Shown: piece by piece, positions 13,559 to 61,119 of the stretch
Layout: every line of letters begins with the position of its first letter
Position numbering within the stretch: position 1 is the first letter of the stretch
Assembly (NCBI GenBank): GCA_902168115.1
Contig: CABHPB010000141.1
Span: 1 to 64,000 of the forward strand
Length of the DNA stretch: 64,000 nucleotides
Source of the DNA: an uncultured Methylopila sp.
Lineage (GTDB): Bacteria > Pseudomonadota > Alphaproteobacteria > Rhizobiales > Methylopilaceae
Direction of reading: 5' to 3'
The notes under the pieces: model-generated
Database searches by the model: none
What the model was told of the DNA's origin: nothing
What the model saw: only the letters and a program-made list of their open reading frames with translations
Program-made: the position numbers and the translations under genes

Positions 13559-13633
13559 GAGTGTGTAGCTCAGTGGTAGAGCGCCGGGCCGAAAGCCCGG
13601 AGGTCGCCGGTTCGAGTCCGGTCATGCCCACCA
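13559..13633 (+). tRNA. tRNA-like element 1. Cloverleaf arms are recognisable and the anticodon loop is CCGAAAG (GAA, Phe-like), but C33 is atypical and the acceptor stem is weak. It may be a pseudo-tRNA.
   Basis: It has TAGCTCAGTGGTAGAGC as the D-arm, ccggg/cccgg as the anticodon stem, and GCCGG-TTCGAGT-CCGGT as the T-arm, followed by CATGCCC-A-CCA. The 5' acceptor GAGTGTG pairs with only 1 mismatch and 2 wobbles. Folded by eye only. Confidence 0.4.
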
Positions 13634-13706
13634 GGATAGCTCAGACGGGTAGAGCAGATGACTGTTAATCATCGTGTCGCGGGTTCGAATCCCGCTCCAT
13701 AACGCT
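13630..13706 (+). tRNA. tRNA-like element 2. Its D, anticodon (CTGTTAA, anticodon GTT, Asn-like) and T arms are canonical, but the acceptor stem does not pair. Its first 4 nt overlap the ACCA end of element 1. It is probably a pseudogene or a recombination remnant.
   Basis: It has TAGCTCAGACGGGTAGAGC, GATGA-CTGTTAA-TCATC and GCGGG-TTCGAAT-CCCGC. The 5' ACCAGGA pairs with the 3' TCCATAA at only 3 positions, and no CCA is encoded. Confidence 0.35.
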
Positions 13707-52699: not shown

Positions 52700-53158
52700 A
52701 GGTTTCGCTTGCGTGGAGGGGCGAACGCCCTTATCTCCCCGCTTGCCCAATTTCGCGCGTGCCTGTGTCGTGTGTCGGGTTGGCGGGAACTCCCCGCCGG
52801 GCAACCCGATGGCCGGAAATCCCAACCGGCTCTAAGTCGCCTCTCCGGCGGCGGACGCGACGTGAAGCAACGACGTAGAGGGCTTTTTTGGTCTCTGTCG
52901 GCTCTCCAAAGGCCGGCGACACTAAAGAGGCGACTACTTCCTTGCCGGGCGCGTGGCGCGGGTAACTCCCAAACCAAGCGTGGCGACGGTTCCCCAACAA
53001 CGGACATCCGTGTCCGGGGATTGTCGTGACTACGGCGTGATCGAGCGGTTCGGCTTCGCGAGAGGTCGGCCACGGAACGACGCAACTTTCGAACCGCGTG
53101 TCTCCACACCGCGCGGATCGAGGGCGCGCCGATCCACCACGCACATCGTGTTTGGGAC
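52700..53158 (+). ncRNA. Long structured 5' leader of the ornithine decarboxylase gene, a candidate alphaproteobacterial speF-leader RNA motif.
   Basis: This is a 460-nt ORF-free stretch with several local hairpins (for example ggcggg-aactc-cccgcc), directly upstream of odc. Known alphaproteobacterial odc genes carry a conserved leader RNA. I assigned it by context only. Confidence 0.4.
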
Positions 53159-54325
53159 GTGACGACCATGACCTCTCACCTCGACGCCCTCGAGAACGAC
53201 CGCCTCCGAGGATTCCTCCGGAACGCCCAGGCCGACGGCCCGATCATGGTCGTCGACAGCGAGATCGTGCGCGAGAACTACGCCAAGTTCGCCCGCGCCC
53301 TGCCGGACACCCGCGTGTTCTACGCCGTCAAGGCGAACCCGGCGCCGGAGATCCTGCAGCTGCTGGCCGACCTCGGCTCGTGCTTCGACTGCGCCTCGGT
53401 CGTCGAGATCGACATGGCGCTGGCGACCGGCGTGAAGCCCGACCGCATCTCGTTCGGCAACACCATCAAGAAGGAGCGCGACGTCGCCGCCGCCTTCGCC
53501 CGTGGCGTGCGCCTGTTCGCGGTCGACTGCCGCGAGGAAGTCGAGAAGATCGAGCGCTCCGCCCCCGGCGCCCGCGTGTTCTGCCGCATCCTGGCCGACG
53601 GCGCCGGCGCCGAGTGGCCGCTGTCGCGCAAGTTCGGCTGCGTCCCGGCGATGGCCGCCGACGTGCTCGAGCACGCCCACGCCCGCGGCCTCGTCGCGTA
53701 CGGCGTGTCGTTCCATGTCGGCTCGCAGCAGAACAATGTCGGCGCGTGGGACGCCGCGCTCGCCTCCGCCGCGGAGATCTTCCGCGAGTGCGAGCGCCGC
53801 GGCATCTACCTGTCGATGGTGAACCTCGGCGGCGGCTTCCCGACCCGCTACCTGAAGGACATCCCGGCGGTCGACGCCTATGGCAATGCGATCTTCGAGG
53901 CGCTGAAGGCGCATTTCGGCAACCGCATCCCGGAGACCATCATCGAGCCGGGCCGCGGCATGGTCGGCAACGCCGGCGTGATCGAGGCCGAAGTGGTGCT
54001 GATCTCGAAGAAGTCGGACGCCGAGGACGAGATCCGCTGGGTCTATCTCGACATCGGCAAGTTCGGCGGCCTCGCCGAGACCATGGACGAGGCGATCCGT
54101 TACCCGATCCGCACCGCCCATGACGGCGACGCGGTGGCCCCCTGCGTGCTCGCCGGCCCGACCTGCGACTCGGCCGACGTGATGTACGAGAAGGCGCCCT
54201 ACGCGCTGCCGGTCAGCCTCTCGATCGGCGACAAGGTGCTGATCGAGGCCTGCGGGGCCTACACGACCACCTATGCGGCGGTCGCGTTCAACGGCTTCGC
54301 GCCGCTGGCCTCGCACGTCATCTGA
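53159..54325 (+). CDS. Ornithine (or lysine/ornithine) decarboxylase, PLP-dependent fold-type III.
   Basis: It has FYAVKANPAPEILQLL with the PLP lysine, GGGFPTRY, and EPGRGMVG. The protein is 388 aa. Confidence 0.85.
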   Translation: MTTMTSHLDALENDRLRGFLRNAQADGPIMVVDSEIVRENYAKFARALPDTRVFYAVKANPAPEILQLLADLGSCFDCASVVEIDMALATGVKPDRISFGNTIKKERDVAAAFARGVRLFAVDCREEVEKIERSAPGARVFCRILADGAGAEWPLSRKFGCVPAMAADVLEHAHARGLVAYGVSFHVGSQQNNVGAWDAALASAAEIFRECERRGIYLSMVNLGGGFPTRYLKDIPAVDAYGNAIFEALKAHFGNRIPETIIEPGRGMVGNAGVIEAEVVLISKKSDAEDEIRWVYLDIGKFGGLAETMDEAIRYPIRTAHDGDAVAPCVLAGPTCDSADVMYEKAPYALPVSLSIGDKVLIEACGAYTTTYAAVAFNGFAPLASHVI

Positions 54326-54405: not shown

Positions 54406-54957
54406 ATGGCCGTCATTCTTGACGAGGCTCCGGCTGACGCCGGGGCCCGCGAGGCCCTGCTCGACCGCGCCTTCGGCGCAGGCCGTTTCACCAAGACCTG
54501 CGAGCGTCTGCGCGAGGGCCGGATTCCGGCGTCCGGCCTCGCGCTCAAGGCGGTGGACGAGACCGGCCGCATGATCGGCACGCTGCGTTTCTGGCACGTG
54601 ACGATCGGAACGGAGCGGCCCGCGCTCATGCTTGGACCGCTCGCGGTCGAGTCGGCCTCCCGCGAGGGCGGCGTCGGCTCGTCGCTGATGCGCGCAGGCC
54701 TGGCGCGGGCCGCGGCGCTCGGCCACGACGCCGTCATCCTGGTCGGCGACCGGCCTTATTACGAGCGCTTCGGCTTTTCGGGCGAGGCGACGGCGGAGCT
54801 TGAGATGCCCGGCCCGGTGGAGCGGGACAGGTTTCTCGCGCTCGAGCTCAAGGCCGGCGCGCTCGCGGGCGCGTCCGGCGAGGTGCGCGGCGCCGGCGCG
54901 GTCGCCTTCGCGCCGCGCAAGTCCGTCAAAGACCGGGTCGCAGCTCGAGCGGCCTGA
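54406..54957 (+). CDS. GNAT-family N-acetyltransferase adjacent to odc.
   Basis: It has an acetyltransferase fold. AGGAGGG lies upstream of the ATG. It sits 80 nt after odc, with a stem-loop ggtcccc-cacg-ggggacc between them. Confidence 0.7.
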   Translation: MAVILDEAPADAGAREALLDRAFGAGRFTKTCERLREGRIPASGLALKAVDETGRMIGTLRFWHVTIGTERPALMLGPLAVESASREGGVGSSLMRAGLARAAALGHDAVILVGDRPYYERFGFSGEATAELEMPGPVERDRFLALELKAGALAGASGEVRGAGAVAFAPRKSVKDRVAARAA

Positions 54958-55498
54958 TTAGGCTCGCGGACTTCAGGACGCGGGGCTGACGCGGGCCGGC
55001 CTTGTCCGCGAGCAGGAAGGGCTGGACCGGCTGCCTGGTCATCTCGGCGATCAGCAGCCGCTCGCGCCGATTGTAGAGCCGCGTCTCGTCCAGCGAGACG
55101 TAGCTCTTCGGCGCGCCAATCTGGCCGCCCTTGAACACCACCACGCGGTCGGTCAGCACCAGGATGTCGCCGCGCTTCAGCGTCGGGTCGATCAGGTGCC
55201 AGTCGGGATTTGCGACGGGGTCGATGACCCGCGCCATCTGCTGCTTGGCGTCGAAGGGAGACAGCGGATTGAGCATGACGAGCCCGGTCGGCTTGCGGTG
55301 TTTGGCGGTCCGCAGCGGCTTCTTCGCGACGGGCTTTGCGATCGTCACGTCCGGATGCGCGGGCGCTGCGACGGGCGCGGGCTCGCGGCGGCCGAACAGA
55401 AAGTCAAACAGTCCCGCCTGCGCGGTCGACACCGTGAGGAAGCTCGCGACGAAGGCGACCCCGAGCGTCTTCCAGCCACCAAGCTGCTTCCAGCCCAT
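54926..55498 (-). CDS. Hypothetical membrane-anchored or secreted protein of 190 aa.
   Basis: It has an N-terminal hydrophobic segment (TLGVAFVASFLTVSTAQA). It overlaps the GNAT gene end convergently. Confidence 0.45.
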   Translation of the reverse strand: MGWKQLGGWKTLGVAFVASFLTVSTAQAGLFDFLFGRREPAPVAAPAHPDVTIAKPVAKKPLRTAKHRKPTGLVMLNPLSPFDAKQQMARVIDPVANPDWHLIDPTLKRGDILVLTDRVVVFKGGQIGAPKSYVSLDETRLYNRRERLLIAEMTRQPVQPFLLADKAGPRQPRVLKSASLIRPLELRPGL

Positions 55499-55630
55499 CG
55501 ACCCCTCCAGCGACGACTTCTCGCAGGAGCGATGTAGCCGAGAGGCGGCCGGAATGGCGCCGCCCGGGGCCTCCCGGCGGCGCGAAGTTTTAAGTTAAAG
55601 TTAACTCGAATGAAGGGCTTGAGGCTCGCC

Positions 55631-56269
55631 TCACCAGCGCAGCAGGCGCGCCCCCACGGCTGCGCCGACGACCGTCACCAGGCAGACGGCGAGCGTGTAC
55701 CAGACGCCGACGAAGAGCGGGGAGTCGTTCGGGCAGAAGGCGGCGTAGGCCGTCGCGCCGATCGCCCCGGCGAGCAGCCCGGCCGCCGCCCCGAGACCGG
55801 CGGGCGATCCCGGCGCGCCCCGACGCATCGCGAGCAGGATCGCGGCGAGCGGCGCCGCCGAAAACAGCGGCACGTGGACCAGGCAGACGAGCCAGTTGAT
55901 CCCCATCACCCGCTCGCGCCACAGCCCGCTCGGCGTGACATACATCTCGACGAGCATGGCGGCGGCCAGCACCGCGATTGCGCCGAACAGGGCGACACGG
56001 GCGGGGGCGAGCGCCGCGCCCGGACGCGCCAGCCGCATGGCGAGCGCAGCCGCAGCGGCGCCGAATGCGCAGGTCACGACGAACTTCATCGGGAAGCGCA
56101 CCGCCGCGAAGGACGGATCGACCTCCGGACGCGGCGGCAGCATGCCCCACGCGGCGATCCACGCCGCGACCGCGGAGACCGCGAGCGCGATCCACACCGC
56201 CGGCGCCAGGCGCTTCGGCGGCGTCGCCGCGTCTGCGGCGATCGCGCGGATCAGATCCTCGGTCCTCAT
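55631..56269 (-). CDS. nrsF: NrsF-family (DUF1109) membrane anti-sigma factor.
   Basis: It starts MRTEDLIRAIAADAATPPKRL, followed by six TM helices. Its ATG overlaps the sigF stop (ATGA). The track fused it into a 397-aa ORF with a wrong upstream extension. Confidence 0.75.
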   Translation of the reverse strand: MRTEDLIRAIAADAATPPKRLAPAVWIALAVSAVAAWIAAWGMLPPRPEVDPSFAAVRFPMKFVVTCAFGAAAAALAMRLARPGAALAPARVALFGAIAVLAAAMLVEMYVTPSGLWRERVMGINWLVCLVHVPLFSAAPLAAILLAMRRGAPGSPAGLGAAAGLLAGAIGATAYAAFCPNDSPLFVGVWYTLAVCLVTVVGAAVGARLLRW

Positions 56270-56820
56270 TCCCGGAAACTCCTGTAGGCTTGGCTGAGCG
56301 CCGCCAGGCCCCTGTGCAGCGCGACCCTCACCGCGCCTTCGCTCATGCTCAGCTTCTCGGCCGTCTCGCCGATGTCGGCGCCGTCGACCGAAATGGACTT
56401 CACCACCTCGTGCTGGCGGCCCTTCAGGACGGAGATGAGCTTCTCCGCCTCGCCGGGCCTGAGGCCGTCGTCGTCGCCGGCCTCGGCCGGCAGGACCTCC
56501 GCGAAGTCCTCGACCGGCACGTGGACGCGCCGTCCCTTGCGGCGGAGCGCGTCGATCAGCTTGTTGCGCGCGATAGCCGCGACCCACGGCCCGACGGGCT
56601 GGCGTTCGTCCCAGGTGCCGCGCTTCAGATGGATCGCAAGCAGCGTCTCCTGCACCACGTCCTCGACATCTGCGGAGGCGAGCCCGTAGCTCGCCGCCCG
56701 GTTGCGGACGACGCTCCGCACGAAGGGAGCGAGCGCCGACAGCAGACGCCGATAGGCCGCGGCGTCGCCTGCGAGCGCCGACGCCATCCAGTCCGACCAG
56801 TCCGCTTCCCGTTCCTTCAC
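56266..56820 (-). CDS. sigF: ECF-subfamily RNA polymerase sigma factor (SigF-like).
   Basis: It has the sigma-70 region 2 (DVVQETLLAIHLKRGTW) and region 4 (EKLSMSEGAVRVALHRG). It has a GTG start with AAGGA upstream. Confidence 0.85.
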   Translation of the reverse strand: MKEREADWSDWMASALAGDAAAYRRLLSALAPFVRSVVRNRAASYGLASADVEDVVQETLLAIHLKRGTWDERQPVGPWVAAIARNKLIDALRRKGRRVHVPVEDFAEVLPAEAGDDDGLRPGEAEKLISVLKGRQHEVVKSISVDGADIGETAEKLSMSEGAVRVALHRGLAALSQAYRSFRE

Positions 56821-56841
56821 GCAAGGTCCTTTGACGAGGCC

Positions 56842-56867
56842 TACGGCCGAAGTCGGCGGCTTGTTAC
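56842..56867 (-). promoter_or_regulatory. Candidate autoregulatory sigmaF-type promoter for sigF-nrsF, reading GTAACA-N16-CGTA on the minus strand.
   Basis: It matches GTAACC-N16-CGAA at 8/10 positions and lies about 25 nt upstream of the sigF start. Confidence 0.35.
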
Positions 56868-56923
56868 GCGCGCGAGGCGGCGCGGCGGGGCCGAACTTTT
56901 TTCTACACGGATGCGTGACGGAC

Positions 56924-56949
56924 GTAACGGCCCGGCCCGTCGCGGCGAA
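56924..56949 (+). promoter_or_regulatory. SigmaF-type ECF promoter GTAACG-N16-CGAA driving the bufferin operon.
   Basis: It is an exact N16 spacer match to the reported sigmaF consensus. It lies about 55 nt upstream of the bufA ATG and divergent from sigF. Confidence 0.55.
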
Positions 56950-57002
56950 ACCTCCGTCACGAGCCGCGCGACGGCTCGATCGGAGAACTCAGGAGAAACA
57001 CC

Positions 57003-57284
57003 ATGCCTGCTCGCACCGTCAACGCCGCGCTCGCCGGCTCCCTGCTCGCCGCCCTGTCGATCGTCTCGGCCTCGGCCGCCGAGGACAAGATGGCCGGCAA
57101 AGAGAAGTGCTACGGCGTCGCCATGAAGGGCCAGAACGACTGCGCCGCCGGCCCCGGCACCACCTGCGCCGGCACCTCCAAGGTCGACTACCAGGGCAAC
57201 GCCTGGAAGGCCGTGGCCAAGGGCACCTGCACCACCATGAAGACCCCGAAGGGCATGGGCTCGCTCGAGCCGATCAAGATGTGA
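57003..57284 (+). CDS. bufA: DUF2282-family Cys-containing secreted peptide (bufferin precursor, BufA-like).
   Basis: It has the signal peptide [28 protein letters not shown]. The core has 4 Cys ([25 protein letters not shown]...[11 protein letters not shown]). AGGAGAA lies upstream of the ATG. Confidence 0.75.
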
Positions 57285-57483
57285 CGCTTCTTCCCTGATC
57301 CCTCTCTCGAAGATGGGAGGGTGGCCGAGCCGAAGGCGAGGTCGGGTGGGGTCGGTTCAGAACAAGGCGCGCGGTCGACGCCGCGCTTCACGATCCAAGT
57401 ACCCACCCGTCCCCGGCTGCGTCGGGGCCACTCTCCCCGCTGCCGCGGGCAGGGATCCCCATGCCGCCTCCGGAGCCGACCTC

Positions 57484-58335
57484 ATGACCCCGACCGCCCT
57501 CCCCGCCACATCCGGCGTCGGCTTCAAGCCGGAGCATTTCGCGGCCATCCTCGAGGCCGGCTTCGACGGCTTCCTCGAGGTCCACGCCGAGAACTACATG
57601 GGCGCGGGCGGACCGCCGCACGCGATGCTCGGGCGGTTGCGCGAGGACCATGCGCTGTCGATCCACGGCGTCGGCCTGTCGATCGGCGGGGCCGGACCGC
57701 TCGACCGCGACCACCTCGCCCGCCTCAGGACGCTCTGCGACCGCTACGCACCGGAGAGCTTTTCGGAGCATCTGGCATGGTCGACGCATGACGGCGACTT
57801 CCTCAACGACCTCCTGCCCCTGCCCTACACGCAGGAGACGCTTCGACGCGTGGTCGCGCATGTCGACCAAACGCAGGACGCGCTCGGCCGGAAGATGCTG
57901 CTGGAGAACCCGGCGACCTACGTGACCTTCGCCGAAAGCGACGTTCCCGAGACCGAGTTCCTCGCCGAGATCGCGCGCCGCGCCGGCTGCGGACTGCTGC
58001 TCGACGTCAACAACGTCTTCGTCTCGGCGACCAATCACGGTTTTTCCGCCGACGCCTATCTTGCGGCGTTTCCTCTCGACTTCGTGGGCGAGATCCATCT
58101 CGGGGGGCACGACGCGCAGGAGGACGACGCCGGCGCGCCGCTGCTGATAGACGCCCACGGCGCGCCCGTGGCGGATCCGGTCTGGACGCTCTACGAGCGT
58201 GTGCTGGCGCGGACCGGCCCGATCGCCAGCCTCATCGAATGGGACAACGACGTGCCCGACTGGTCGACGCTCGCCGCCGAAGCGAAGCGCGCCGACGCCC
58301 TGATGGCCGGCGCCGCGCGCCGTCGCGCCGCCTGA
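57484..58335 (+). CDS. bufB: DUF692 / UPF0276 TIM-barrel protein (MNIO multinuclear non-heme iron oxidase, BufB-like).
   Basis: It contains [36 protein letters not shown] and EIHLGGHD. The start was trimmed to the ATG at 57484. The track ORF begins at 57313 with a junk extension. Confidence 0.85.
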
Positions 58336-58346
58336 GGCCCCGCGCC

Positions 58347-59123
58347 ATGTCCGCCGCGACCGAGACCGCCTTCGGCGCCGCCCTCCGCGACCCGGGCCGC
58401 GGAGCGCCCGCCCACTTGGCTCCGTCGTCGGGCCGGCGCCCGGAGCGGCGCTTCTCGGTCTATCGCAACAACGTCGCCGTCTCGCTGATGGGCGCGCTCG
58501 CGACGCGGTTTCCAGCCGCGCGGCGCATCGTCGGCGAAGCGTTCTTCGACGAACTCGCCAGAGCTTATGTCGCGCAGCATCCACCGCGCTCGCCGCTGAT
58601 GATGATGTATGGCGACGATTTTCCCGAGTTCGTCGCGCAGGCGCCAGGCCTCGACGAGGTCTCCTATCTCGCCGACATCACGCGGCTGGAGGCGGCGCGG
58701 ACCCGAGCCTATCACGCCGCCGACGCAGATCCTTTGCCGGCTTCCGCCTTCGCGGCTCTCGATGGCGCGCTCGACGAGGTCCGCCTTGCGCTCCACCCGT
58801 CGGTCGAGGTGGTGCGGTCCGGGCATCCGCTCGTGACGATCTGGGCGATGAACTCCGGCGAAGCTGAGCTTGGCCCCATCGCCGACTGGTCGCCGCAAGA
58901 CGCGCTGGTCTGCCGGCCCGAGCTTGACGTTTTCGTCCGCCGGCTGCCGGACGGCGGCGCGGCGTTCCTGGTGGCGCTCGCCGGGGGCGCGACGCTCGCC
59001 GACGCCGCCGGCCGCGCCGCGCAGGAGGCGCGCAGCTTCGACCTCACGGAAAACCTGATCGGCCTGATCGGCGGCGGCCTCGTCGTCGCGATCCGGCCCT
59101 CGCAACAGGGAGACGCGCCATGA
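58347..59123 (+). CDS. bufC: DUF2063-family protein (MNIO partner, BufC-like).
   Basis: The hallmark RFSVYRNNV is present. The ATG at 58347 lies 12 nt after the bufB stop. Confidence 0.8.
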   Translation: MSAATETAFGAALRDPGRGAPAHLAPSSGRRPERRFSVYRNNVAVSLMGALATRFPAARRIVGEAFFDELARAYVAQHPPRSPLMMMYGDDFPEFVAQAPGLDEVSYLADITRLEAARTRAYHAADADPLPASAFAALDGALDEVRLALHPSVEVVRSGHPLVTIWAMNSGEAELGPIADWSPQDALVCRPELDVFVRRLPDGGAAFLVALAGGATLADAAGRAAQEARSFDLTENLIGLIGGGLVVAIRPSQQGDAP

Positions 59124-59599
59124 GCGCCATCGACGTCCGCCCGCCCGTCCTGTCCGGCCCCGCGGAGGCGATCCGCCGCCTGTTCGGCCTGTTCGAGGCC
59201 ATCCCCTATTCGCTGCTGGCGCTGGCGGCGCGGGTGTTTCCGGCGGCGGTGTTCTGGCAGTCCGGCCAGACCAAGACGCAGGGGCTGAACGTCTTCGCGC
59301 TCTCCGACAGCGCGGTGTTCCTTTTTCAGGAAGAGTACAAGCTCCCGCTGGTCGACCCGACGGTGGCGGCGCATGGCGCGGCGATCGCAGAGCACCTGTT
59401 CCCCGCGCTGCTCGTCATCGGCCTCGCCAGCCGCTTTTCGGCGCTCGCGCTGCTCGGCATGACGCTGGTCATCGAGATCTTCGTCTATCCGGACGCCTGG
59501 CCGACGCACGGCACCTGGGCCGCCTGCTTCCTGCTGGTCATCGCCCGCGGGCCGGGCGTGGTCTCGCTCGACCATCTCATCGCGAAGCGCTGGGGGTGA
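59120..59599 (+). CDS. bufD: DoxX-family membrane protein (BufD-like).
   Basis: It has four TM helices of the DoxX pattern. Its ATGA overlaps the bufC stop. Confidence 0.8.
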   Translation: MSAIDVRPPVLSGPAEAIRRLFGLFEAIPYSLLALAARVFPAAVFWQSGQTKTQGLNVFALSDSAVFLFQEEYKLPLVDPTVAAHGAAIAEHLFPALLVIGLASRFSALALLGMTLVIEIFVYPDAWPTHGTWAACFLLVIARGPGVVSLDHLIAKRWG

Positions 59600-59685: not shown

Positions 59686-61119
59686 ATGACCGACTGGCCC
59701 GTCTACGCAAAGATCGACGGCCCCATCGTCATCATCGGCTTCGGCTCGATCGGACGCGGCACGCTGCCCCTCATCGAGCGCCACTTCGAGTACGACAAGG
59801 ACCGGATCGTCGCGATCGACCCGTCCGACCTCAACAAGCACATCCTCGACAAGCACGGCGTGCCGTTCATCCAGCAGCACGTCACCAAGGAGAACTATCG
59901 CGAGCTGCTGACTCCGCTGCTCACCAAGGGCGGCGGTCGCGGTTTTTGCGTGAACCTCTCGGTCGACACCGGCTCGGCGGACCTCATGGCGCTCTGCCAG
60001 GAGCTCGGCTGCCTCTACATCGACACCGTCAACGAGCCGTGGCTCGGATTCTACTTCGACAAGACCAAGGGCCCGTCCGAGCGCTCGAACTACGCGCTGC
60101 GCGAGATCACGCTCGACCTTCGCCGCCGCTCGCCGAAGGGCCTACCGACCGCCGTCTCCACCTGCGGGGCGAACCCCGGGATGGTGTCGTTCTTCGTCAA
60201 GCAGGCGGCGCTGAACATCGCCTCCGACCTTAAGCTCAACGTTCCCGAGCCGAAGAACCGCGAGGAGTGGGCGGCGCTGCTGCGGCAGATCGGCGTGAAG
60301 GGCGTCCACATCGCCGAGCGCGACACCCAGCGCACCACGGACCCCAAGCCTCGCGGCGTGTTCCTCAACACCTGGTCGGTCGAGGGCTTCATCTCGGAAG
60401 GGCTGCAGCCGGCCGAGCTCGGCTGGGGCACGCATGAGAAGTGGATGCCGGCCAACGGCAAGACCCATGAGGATCCGAAGGCGGCGGCGATCTACCTGAT
60501 GCAGCCGGGCGCGGCGACCAAGGTCCGCACCTGGTGCCCGACGCCGGGTCCCCAGTACGGCTTCCTCGTCACCCACAACGAGTCGATCTCGATCGCCGAC
60601 TACTTCACCGTCTGGGAGGACGGCAAGGCGGTCTACCGCCCGACCTGCCACTACGCCTACCACCCGGCCGACGACGCCGTGCTGTCCTGGCACGAGCTGT
60701 TCGGCGCGGAAGGCAAGGTGCAGGACAAGCTGCACGTGCTCGACGAGGACGAACTCACCGACGGCGTCGACGAGCTCGGCGTGCTGCTCTACGGCCACGG
60801 CAAGGGCGCCTACTGGTACGGCTCGCAGCTCTCGCTCGAGGAGACCCGCACGCTTGCGCCCTACCAGAACGCGACCGGTCTGCAGGTGACCTCCGCCATC
60901 CTCGCCGGCATGGTCTGGGCGATCGAGAACCCGAACGAGGGCATCGTCGAAACCGACGAGATGGACTTCAAGCGCTGCCTGGAGATCCAGCGCCCCTATC
61001 TCGGGCCGGTGAAGGGCTACTACACCGACTGGACGCCGCTCGAGAACCGCCCGGGCCTGTTCCCGGAGGAGATCGACGAGAGCGATCCCTGGCAGTTCCG
61101 GAACTTCTTCGTCGGGTGA
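59686..61119 (+). CDS. hss: Homospermidine synthase (NAD-dependent).
   Basis: It starts MTDWPVYAKIDGPIVIIGFGSIGRGTLPLIERH. The protein is 477 aa, the typical length and N-terminus for bacterial HSS. AAGGAG lies upstream of the ATG. Confidence 0.9.
   Translation: MTDWPVYAKIDGPIVIIGFGSIGRGTLPLIERHFEYDKDRIVAIDPSDLNKHILDKHGVPFIQQHVTKENYRELLTPLLTKGGGRGFCVNLSVDTGSADLMALCQELGCLYIDTVNEPWLGFYFDKTKGPSERSNYALREITLDLRRRSPKGLPTAVSTCGANPGMVSFFVKQAALNIASDLKLNVPEPKNREEWAALLRQIGVKGVHIAERDTQRTTDPKPRGVFLNTWSVEGFISEGLQPAELGWGTHEKWMPANGKTHEDPKAAAIYLMQPGAATKVRTWCPTPGPQYGFLVTHNESISIADYFTVWEDGKAVYRPTCHYAYHPADDAVLSWHELFGAEGKVQDKLHVLDEDELTDGVDELGVLLYGHGKGAYWYGSQLSLEETRTLAPYQNATGLQVTSAILAGMVWAIENPNEGIVETDEMDFKRCLEIQRPYLGPVKGYYTDWTPLENRPGLFPEEIDESDPWQFRNFFVG

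Follow-up and report, generated by a model that had tools for sequence, protein, structure and literature searches.

Positions 55631-59599 of a 64,000-nucleotide (nt) stretch of contig CABHPB010000141.1 from an uncultured Methylopila sp. (hereafter the window) carry a six-gene locus in which bufABCD are divergent from a sigma/anti-sigma factor pair, sigF-nrsF. On the evidence of its sequence we consider it very likely that this locus is an intact, ordinary orthologue of the Caulobacter buf1 system under a dedicated sigma/anti-sigma pair of extracytoplasmic function (ECF) group ECF16. Bufferin-1, the product of buf1, is a captophorin-class ribosomally synthesised, post-translationally modified peptide (RiPP), a small copper-binding peptide of the periplasm, and by analogy the product of the locus described here is predicted to bind copper. 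None of the six reading frames is interrupted and all keep the invariant catalytic, cysteine and regulatory residues, the six family assignments lie above curated thresholds wherever such a model exists, and we find no sequence feature that contradicts assignment as a buf1 orthologue.

In Caulobacter vibrioides (crescentus) the buf1 locus comprises bufA1B1C1D1 (CCNA_03363-03366, also CC3254-CC3257) with sigF-nrsF (CC3253-CC3252) in divergent orientation; the same six genes occur here in the same order and orientation. The products of nrsF, sigF, bufA, bufB, bufC and bufD measure 212, 184, 93, 283, 258 and 159 amino acids (aa) in the window, against 214, 179, 93, 280, 254 and 150 aa in Caulobacter. 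Both loci moreover have a sigmaF-type promoter approximately 50-60 nt before bufA and a similar one before sigF, and both keep the two cysteines of NrsF discussed below. A first-pass annotation, prepared from the letters of the window alone, had recognised bufABCD divergent from sigF-nrsF as the architecture of a bufferin cluster; this is indeed the arrangement of CC3252-CC3257, and 50 of 80 related loci share it. Those loci were gathered by scanning a genome collection with a BufA alignment, which identified at least 80 of them, and all counts given below are among the matches listed. A homologue of sigF was divergent from bufA in 50 of the 80, usually with nrsF after it, and the sigma gene of the window is 35-55% identical to its counterparts at these 50 loci. 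The gene bufC followed bufB in 78 of the 80 loci, and bufD followed bufC in most. A rearranged layout was observed in several Erythrobacter/Qipengyuania loci (L040, L063, L065, L066, L069 and L074), with bufB-bufC divergent from bufA, and doxX, sigF and nrsF downstream of bufA. Searches with the hidden Markov models of Pfam and NCBIfam bore out the domain calls of the first-pass annotation, namely DUF2282, DUF692, DUF2063, DoxX and DUF1109 (the last now called NrsF). No second buf paralogue, buf2 included, was found within the 64-kb window.

The gene bufA (57003-57284, plus strand) encodes a 93-aa precursor that matches PF10048 (DUF2282) with 87.6 bits (cut-off 22.4). Its score against the BufA2 model was far below the cut-off (24.5 bits against 60), so we assign it to the Buf1 rather than the Buf2 type. 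It belongs to a family of more than 8000 BufA homologues, some of which NCBI names "BufA1 family periplasmic bufferin-type metallophore"; a protein of Chelatococcus sambhunathii shares 97% identity with it, and an identical BufA is present on a metagenome contig in the European Nucleotide Archive (ENA). By inspection, the N-terminus has a positively charged n-region (MPAR), a hydrophobic stretch and the sequence ASA|AE at residues 23-27. Residues 1-25 are thus a predicted Sec signal peptide, with the cleavage site ASA|AED read by eye, leaving a core of 68 residues; this is the same 25 + 68 division as in Caulobacter BufA1, a 93-aa precursor with a 68-residue core. The core has predicted monoisotopic masses of 7000.295 Da unmodified and 6990.217 Da mature. 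Its translation contains the four cysteines previously noted in CYG, DCAAG, TCAG and TCTT contexts, at core positions 11, 22, 30 and 51 (the first context in full being KCYG). Their spacing of 11-8-21 is identical to that of Caulobacter Buf1, where the cysteines occupy positions 12, 23, 31 and 52, and all four are invariant in 80 of the 80 related loci listed. The motif NDCAAG likewise seems invariant in these loci, a result biased by its presence among the search patterns. Further comparison with Buf1 was based on the residue numbers and identities named in the text of PMC11626156, not on the full Caulobacter BufA1 sequence. Of 15 residues so named, 11 have identical counterparts here, all shifted by -1 (E10, C12, Y13, D22, C23, C31, A32, W44, K45, V47 and C52). 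The two peptides have in common the D-C at CysII, the C-A at CysIII, and the E-x-C-Y and W-K-x-V strands. No solved structure was found for BufA.

The assignment extends to the predicted maturation proteins. The 283-aa product of bufB (57484-58335, plus strand) is a multinuclear non-haem iron oxidative enzyme (MNIO, formerly DUF692), matching PF05114 with 344 bits and the NCBIfam MNIO_BufB equivalog model with 378.8 bits (cut-off 310), and on this basis we predict that it acts as the bufferin maturase. It scored 226.7 bits against the HvfB model, below the cut-off of 360, and is therefore not an HvfB equivalog. The closest solved structure was 3BWW (E = 3.5e-39). Of up to 79 orthologues, 76 or more keep each of the residues H61, H96, E141, D174, N177, H205, D223, H225 and E252 of BufB. 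Among these residues N177, D223 and H225 align through 3BWW with N175, D242 and H244 of HvfB site 3; the agreement is within one residue, since the protein in 3BWW is not HvfB but a homologue with 72% identity to it. These three residues are essential in HvfB, their substitution abolishing activity. The other conserved residues are putatively assigned, by reference to MbnB structures, to iron sites 1 and 2. Downstream, bufC (58347-59123, plus strand) encodes a 258-aa protein with an N-terminal DUF2063 domain (PF09836, 93 bits, cut-off 27.2) and a sub-threshold match to NCBIfam HvfC; public gene calls give it the same length. The last gene, bufD (59120-59599, plus strand), encodes a 159-aa membrane protein of the DoxX family (PF07681, 55.1 bits, cut-off 23.6) with a sub-threshold match to NCBIfam HvfX. 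In Caulobacter, BufD is dispensable for both modification and copper protection (PMC11626156).

On the opposite strand, sigF (56266-56820, minus strand) begins with GTG and encodes a 184-aa protein comprising Sigma70_r2 and Sigma70_r4_2 domains, which scored 251.9 bits against the NCBIfam PRK12512 equivalog model (cut-off 198). Its orthologues in Caulobacter and Sinorhizobium meliloti are sigmaF and RpoE7, of group ECF16. The following gene, nrsF (55631-56269, minus strand), encodes a protein of 212 aa, a length also found in the public gene call on an identical contig. It covers the whole PF06532 (NrsF) profile with 157.7 bits and reached 91.7 bits on the NCBIfam AntiSigF_NrsF equivalog model (cut-off 300), which places it in the family at large and not at equivalog level. 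Its predicted role is that of the multi-pass membrane anti-sigma factor of sigmaF (formerly DUF1109). Caulobacter NrsF needs C131 and C181 for the stress response (PMC3511200). The corresponding C129 and C179 lie the same 50 residues apart here and are conserved in 51 of 52 and 52 of 53 orthologues, respectively, while the other two cysteines of NrsF are unconserved. Approximately 50 nt past the nrsF stop codon is a GC-rich hairpin (GCGCCGCCGGG...CCCGGGCGGCGC, ~55556-55584, minus strand), preceded by an AT-rich stretch and lacking a U tract, which may be where the sigF-nrsF transcript ends.

The region between the two transcription units contains two candidate sigmaF promoters. The exact GTAACG-N16-CGAA promoter that had been reported in front of the peptide gene was found at 56924-56949 (plus strand), its 3' end 54 nt upstream of the bufA ATG. 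The second candidate, reported on the opposite strand, is GTAACA-N16-CGTA at 56842-56867 (minus strand), 21 nt upstream of the sigF GTG. A distance of 56 nt separates the two -35 elements, which falls inside the 32-114 nt range of related loci. No other match to GTAAC-N17-CGWA occurs in the 64-kb window; approximately 0.16 would be expected by chance, and one of 100 shuffled sequences reached two. The published Caulobacter sigmaF motif, GTAACC-N16-CGAA, was mapped by rapid amplification of 5' cDNA ends upstream of CC3254 (transcription start at -61) and of sigF, and lacZ fusions established that it is required (PMC3511200). The -35 elements of the window differ from GTAACC at the sixth base (G toward bufA, A toward sigF), and the -10 element on the sigF side is CGTA, not CGAA.

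Because a single window cannot prove function, we used phylogenetic footprinting over the intergenic regions of the 50 divergent sigF-bufA loci, which are alpha- and betaproteobacterial. The motif was present toward bufA in 47 of the 50, always with a 16-nt spacer and with G as the sixth base in 16, and toward sigF in 49 of the 50, with A as the sixth base in 16 and a CGTA -10 element in 9. Counted as variants across the divergent loci, a sixth base of G or A gave 23 and 22 instances, and a -10 element of CGTA gave 3 and 9. Elsewhere in the 50 sigF-linked loci there were 5 matches to GTAAC-N15-17-CGWA in 729 kb, both strands included; these five, outside the sigF-bufA intergenic regions, may be other promoters of the sigmaF regulon or chance matches. 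C. sambhunathii, with 94% identity across the intergenic region, also retains both motifs; the spacer of the bufA-side motif is one base longer there. Given this conservation, and the published promoters of S. meliloti described below, both promoters are well supported as predicted targets of sigmaF. The autoregulation that the first-pass annotation had suggested from the second motif agrees with published data for Caulobacter sigF (PMC3511200) and S. meliloti rpoE7 (PMC6180224), the auto-induction of Caulobacter sigF being modest (PMC3511200).

These elements suggest the following mechanism. By homology, NrsF would hold sigmaF at the membrane until envelope stress, which in Caulobacter means copper and other metals, inactivates it via C129 and C179. 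Free sigmaF would then bring RNA polymerase to the two back-to-back promoters, whose motifs are observed and whose activity is presumed: GTAACG-N16-CGAA would drive bufABCD, and GTAACA-N16-CGTA would drive sigF-nrsF and so create positive feedback. In the cytoplasm, the oxygen-dependent multi-iron enzyme BufB and its partner BufC would oxidise C47 and C55 of BufA (C22 and C30 of the core) to 5-thiooxazoles, with a loss of 4 Da at each. The precursor would be exported by Sec, its 25-residue signal peptide removed, and the outer cysteines C36 and C76 joined in a disulfide. The folded 68-residue product could bind one Cu(I) or Cu(II) through thiooxazole nitrogen and sulfur and thereby buffer excess periplasmic copper. 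For sigma release, cysteine oxidation, Sec export, the disulfide and 1:1 copper binding we extrapolate from Caulobacter, whose Buf1 binds Cu2+ with a dissociation constant of ~6e-15 M and Cu+ with one of ~7e-20 M (PMC11626156).

Several points weigh against the interpretation of the locus as a standard copper-responsive buf1 orthologue. Four of the 15 named Buf1 residues, all near the copper site, are changed here (K24 to A, which follows CysII, S30 to T, M46 to A and K48 to A). An AlphaFold2 model of BufA, built from a 17-sequence alignment, was of low confidence (mean predicted local distance difference test score 46.9, predicted template modelling score 0.27) and is unusable for fold or disulfide geometry. 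For BufC, in which a putative C-terminal domain would resemble a RiPP recognition element, a sequence search of the Protein Data Bank gave no significant match. The orthologous promoters of S. meliloti are not induced by H2O2, cadmium or chromate (PMC6180224), and an NrsF-type system of Azospira responds to hypochlorite; because of these last two observations, the trigger here is uncertain. The substitutions, the sixth -35 bases, the sigF-side -10 element and the lack of a buf2 paralogue within the window set the locus apart from that of Caulobacter, and they touch no defining feature.

It is conceivable, although we judge it unlikely, that the same cluster and chemistry serve a trigger or role other than copper, with sigmaF/NrsF sensing oxidants such as hypochlorite, or gold, cadmium or chromate, and the peptide acting in protection. 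The homologues of NrsF and SigF in Azospira sense reactive chlorine species and drive a divergent operon for a periplasmic peptide, the first reported links of Caulobacter sigmaF were with chromate, cadmium and oxidative stress (PMC3511200), and "gig" operons are gold-induced (PMC11626156). The unresponsive S. meliloti orthologue is counted on the same side, as are the five methionines in the 68-residue core. In Caulobacter, however, bufA1 and bufA2 fusions respond to copper and not to iron, zinc or manganese, Buf1 offered several metals together selects copper, its affinity being in the femtomolar range or tighter, and mutation of buf sensitises cells to copper (PMC11626156); moreover, the thiooxazole-forming cysteines and the enzyme are fully conserved here. 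A more specific version, which we consider improbable, would make the loci with the NDCAAG motif a Buf1 subgroup of different metal affinity or selectivity, or one that serves as a sacrificial oxidant sink as well, with induction by something other than copper. This is raised by the alanines at the positions of Buf1 Lys24 and of Met46 and Lys48, the latter two on the copper-sensing beta-sheet face, by the five methionines elsewhere in the core, and by the existence of hypochlorite-sensing NrsF types.

Returning to the buf1 orthologue, the first-pass annotation had also asked whether the modification pattern of its peptide could differ from that of characterised bufferins. We found no sign of this in the sequence: the number and spacing of the cysteines are identical to those of Buf1, and for this reason the same modification, two central thiooxazoles and an outer disulfide, is to be expected. 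In Caulobacter Buf1, CysII and CysIII each lose 4.03 Da on conversion to 5-thiooxazole, and CysI and CysIV form a disulfide (PMC11626156). That the MNIO instead installs another modification, either an oxazolone-thioamide or one on a different set of cysteines, seems very improbable to us. The idea draws on two cysteine-flanking residues that differ from Caulobacter (DCA against DCK, and TCA against SCA) and on the first assignment of related MNIO products as oxazolone-thioamides, which are isomeric with 5-thiooxazole (10.64898/2025.12.15.693703, PMC13097082). The debate has since been settled, however, by revision of the oxazolin structure and confirmation of 5-thiooxazole in bufferins and their EGKCG relatives (same sources), BufB scores above the BufB equivalog cut-off, and MNIOs of the DUF2282 type tolerate variable residues around the cysteine. 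Finally, that the locus is silent or decaying and its promoter-like motifs are chance matches is scarcely credible, for although the motif scan alone is weak (one or more matches to GTAAC-N17-CGAA in 64 kb turned up in 14 of 100 shuffles), the six frames are intact with their invariant residues, and the motifs hold their position in 47 and 49 of the 50 loci and in C. sambhunathii.

Beyond Caulobacter, a close parallel is the ECF16 system of S. meliloti, rpoE7-ecfR7 with SMb20530-SMb20527, in which a divergent sigma/anti-sigma pair lies beside genes for a DUF2282-type membrane protein, a DUF692 protein, a DUF2063 protein and a fourth protein. Both published promoters of this system are GTAACA-N16-CGAA, and all of these genes are upregulated on RpoE7 overexpression; it differs in being located on the pSymB megaplasmid and in being absent from some strains (PMC6180224). 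The EGKCG-repeat captophorins (oxazolin, from HvfA/HvfBC of Haemophilus influenzae, fontiphorin, gonophorin and bulbicupramide) and Buf2 (BUF_6/12Cys) have precursors of another family. They share the MNIO subfamily, the DUF2063 partner and often DoxX, as well as the conversion of cysteine to 5-thiooxazole, Sec signal peptides and copper-binding products; the BufA described here lacks EGKCG repeats. Methanobactin (MbnA/MbnBC) is distantly related. BufB has the MNIO fold and iron ligands in common with MbnB structures (E = 1e-8 to 5e-10), the substrate in both cases is a cysteine-containing ribosomal peptide, and the methanobactin product also binds copper. The methanobactin model, however, gave BufB 51.8 bits against a cut-off of 325, the partner MbnC is not a DUF2063 protein, and the product, which bears oxazolone-thioamide groups, is secreted as a chalkophore for copper acquisition rather than acting as a periplasmic buffer.

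Nothing in this locus is new, and the first-pass annotation overstated its novelty: the system, its linkage to the regulator and the database names have all been published. The bufferin system was described in PMC11626156 and the sigmaF/NrsF regulators in PMC3511200, and a family survey described Buf1 clusters as typically containing genes for a sigma factor and NrsF, without reporting such genes for Buf2 clusters (PMC12452194). Models in NCBIfam and Pfam already name these proteins, and public records label the Pfam families "BufA1" and "HvfC_N". What the analysis provides is a correct annotation, namely that the genome carries a standard periplasmic copper-buffering RiPP system with a dedicated ECF16 regulator. 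The comparative promoter count is possibly a useful by-product, in that it shows the uniform sigmaF wiring of Buf1 clusters, an association already present in PMC12452194, PMC3511200 and PMC6180224.

One part of the earlier description had to be revised, that of genes "tightly packed and partly overlapping". Overlap holds for bufC/bufD and for sigF/nrsF, where in each case the stop codon of the first gene is overlapped by 4 nt with the ATG of the second, and for no other pair; the tight packing was overstated, with 199 nt between bufA and bufB and 11 nt between bufB and bufC. The picture arose because longest open reading frame (ORF) starts had been used, at 57313 for bufB and 58239 for bufC. 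The resulting extensions fall beyond the domain models, lack conservation in C. sambhunathii and do not appear in independent gene calls. The conserved starts are instead 57484 for bufB (283 aa) and 58347 for bufC (258 aa), as also chosen in independent public calls on the identical contig and on C. sambhunathii. The bufA-bufB spacer (57285-57483, plus strand, 199 nt) is poorly conserved relative to C. sambhunathii, with indels that break the reading frame, and no conserved element was detected in it; we therefore conclude that the in-frame ATG at 57313 is not the bufB start. Nor was there any sign of a regulatory RNA or attenuator in the 199 nt, with a folding z-score of -0.34, no terminator-like site on the plus strand and no Rfam match. 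The spacer does contain a small perfect GC hairpin at 57369-57386 (GCGCGG-TCGAC-GCCGCGC), which is terminator-like on the minus strand only and is absent from C. sambhunathii.

The buf locus is not in an island; it has a conserved chromosomal context between polyamine genes, as judged from the decarboxylase, GNAT and saccharopine-dehydrogenase-family genes nearby. The region has a G+C content of approximately 70% without a compositional break, and the same gene set is present in C. sambhunathii and on the identical ENA metagenome contig. From this agreement the analysis placed the window in a Chelatococcus. In C. sambhunathii the neighbours are the same upstream, and downstream as far as the saccharopine-dehydrogenase-family gene, beyond which lies an extra gene for a mechanosensitive channel. 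In the window, that family is represented by a gene at 59686-61119, which probably encodes a homospermidine synthase, and on the other side of the locus is a gene for a GNAT acetyltransferase (54406-54957). Further upstream, two Rfam matches at gathering level lie back to back on the plus strand, the alphaproteobacterial small RNA ar45 (52745-52887, 46 bits) and a speF leader (52896-53016, 39.8 bits), directly upstream of a gene for a decarboxylase of the ornithine/diaminopimelate type (53159-54325).

Also in this neighbourhood, on the strand of nrsF and 132 nt downstream of it, begins a 190-aa ORF (54926-55498, minus strand), which has a signal-peptide-like N-terminus and whose 3' end shares 32 nt with the convergent GNAT gene. 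It had no match in Pfam or NCBIfam. We considered it as a member of the regulon and rejected it, placing it outside the conserved system: although conserved in C. sambhunathii, it does not occur in the 80 other buf loci listed. Far from the buf locus, two tandem tRNA genes lie 3 nt apart on the plus strand (13559-13630 and 13634-13698), the second of which covers model positions 5-66 only and is perhaps truncated or unusual.

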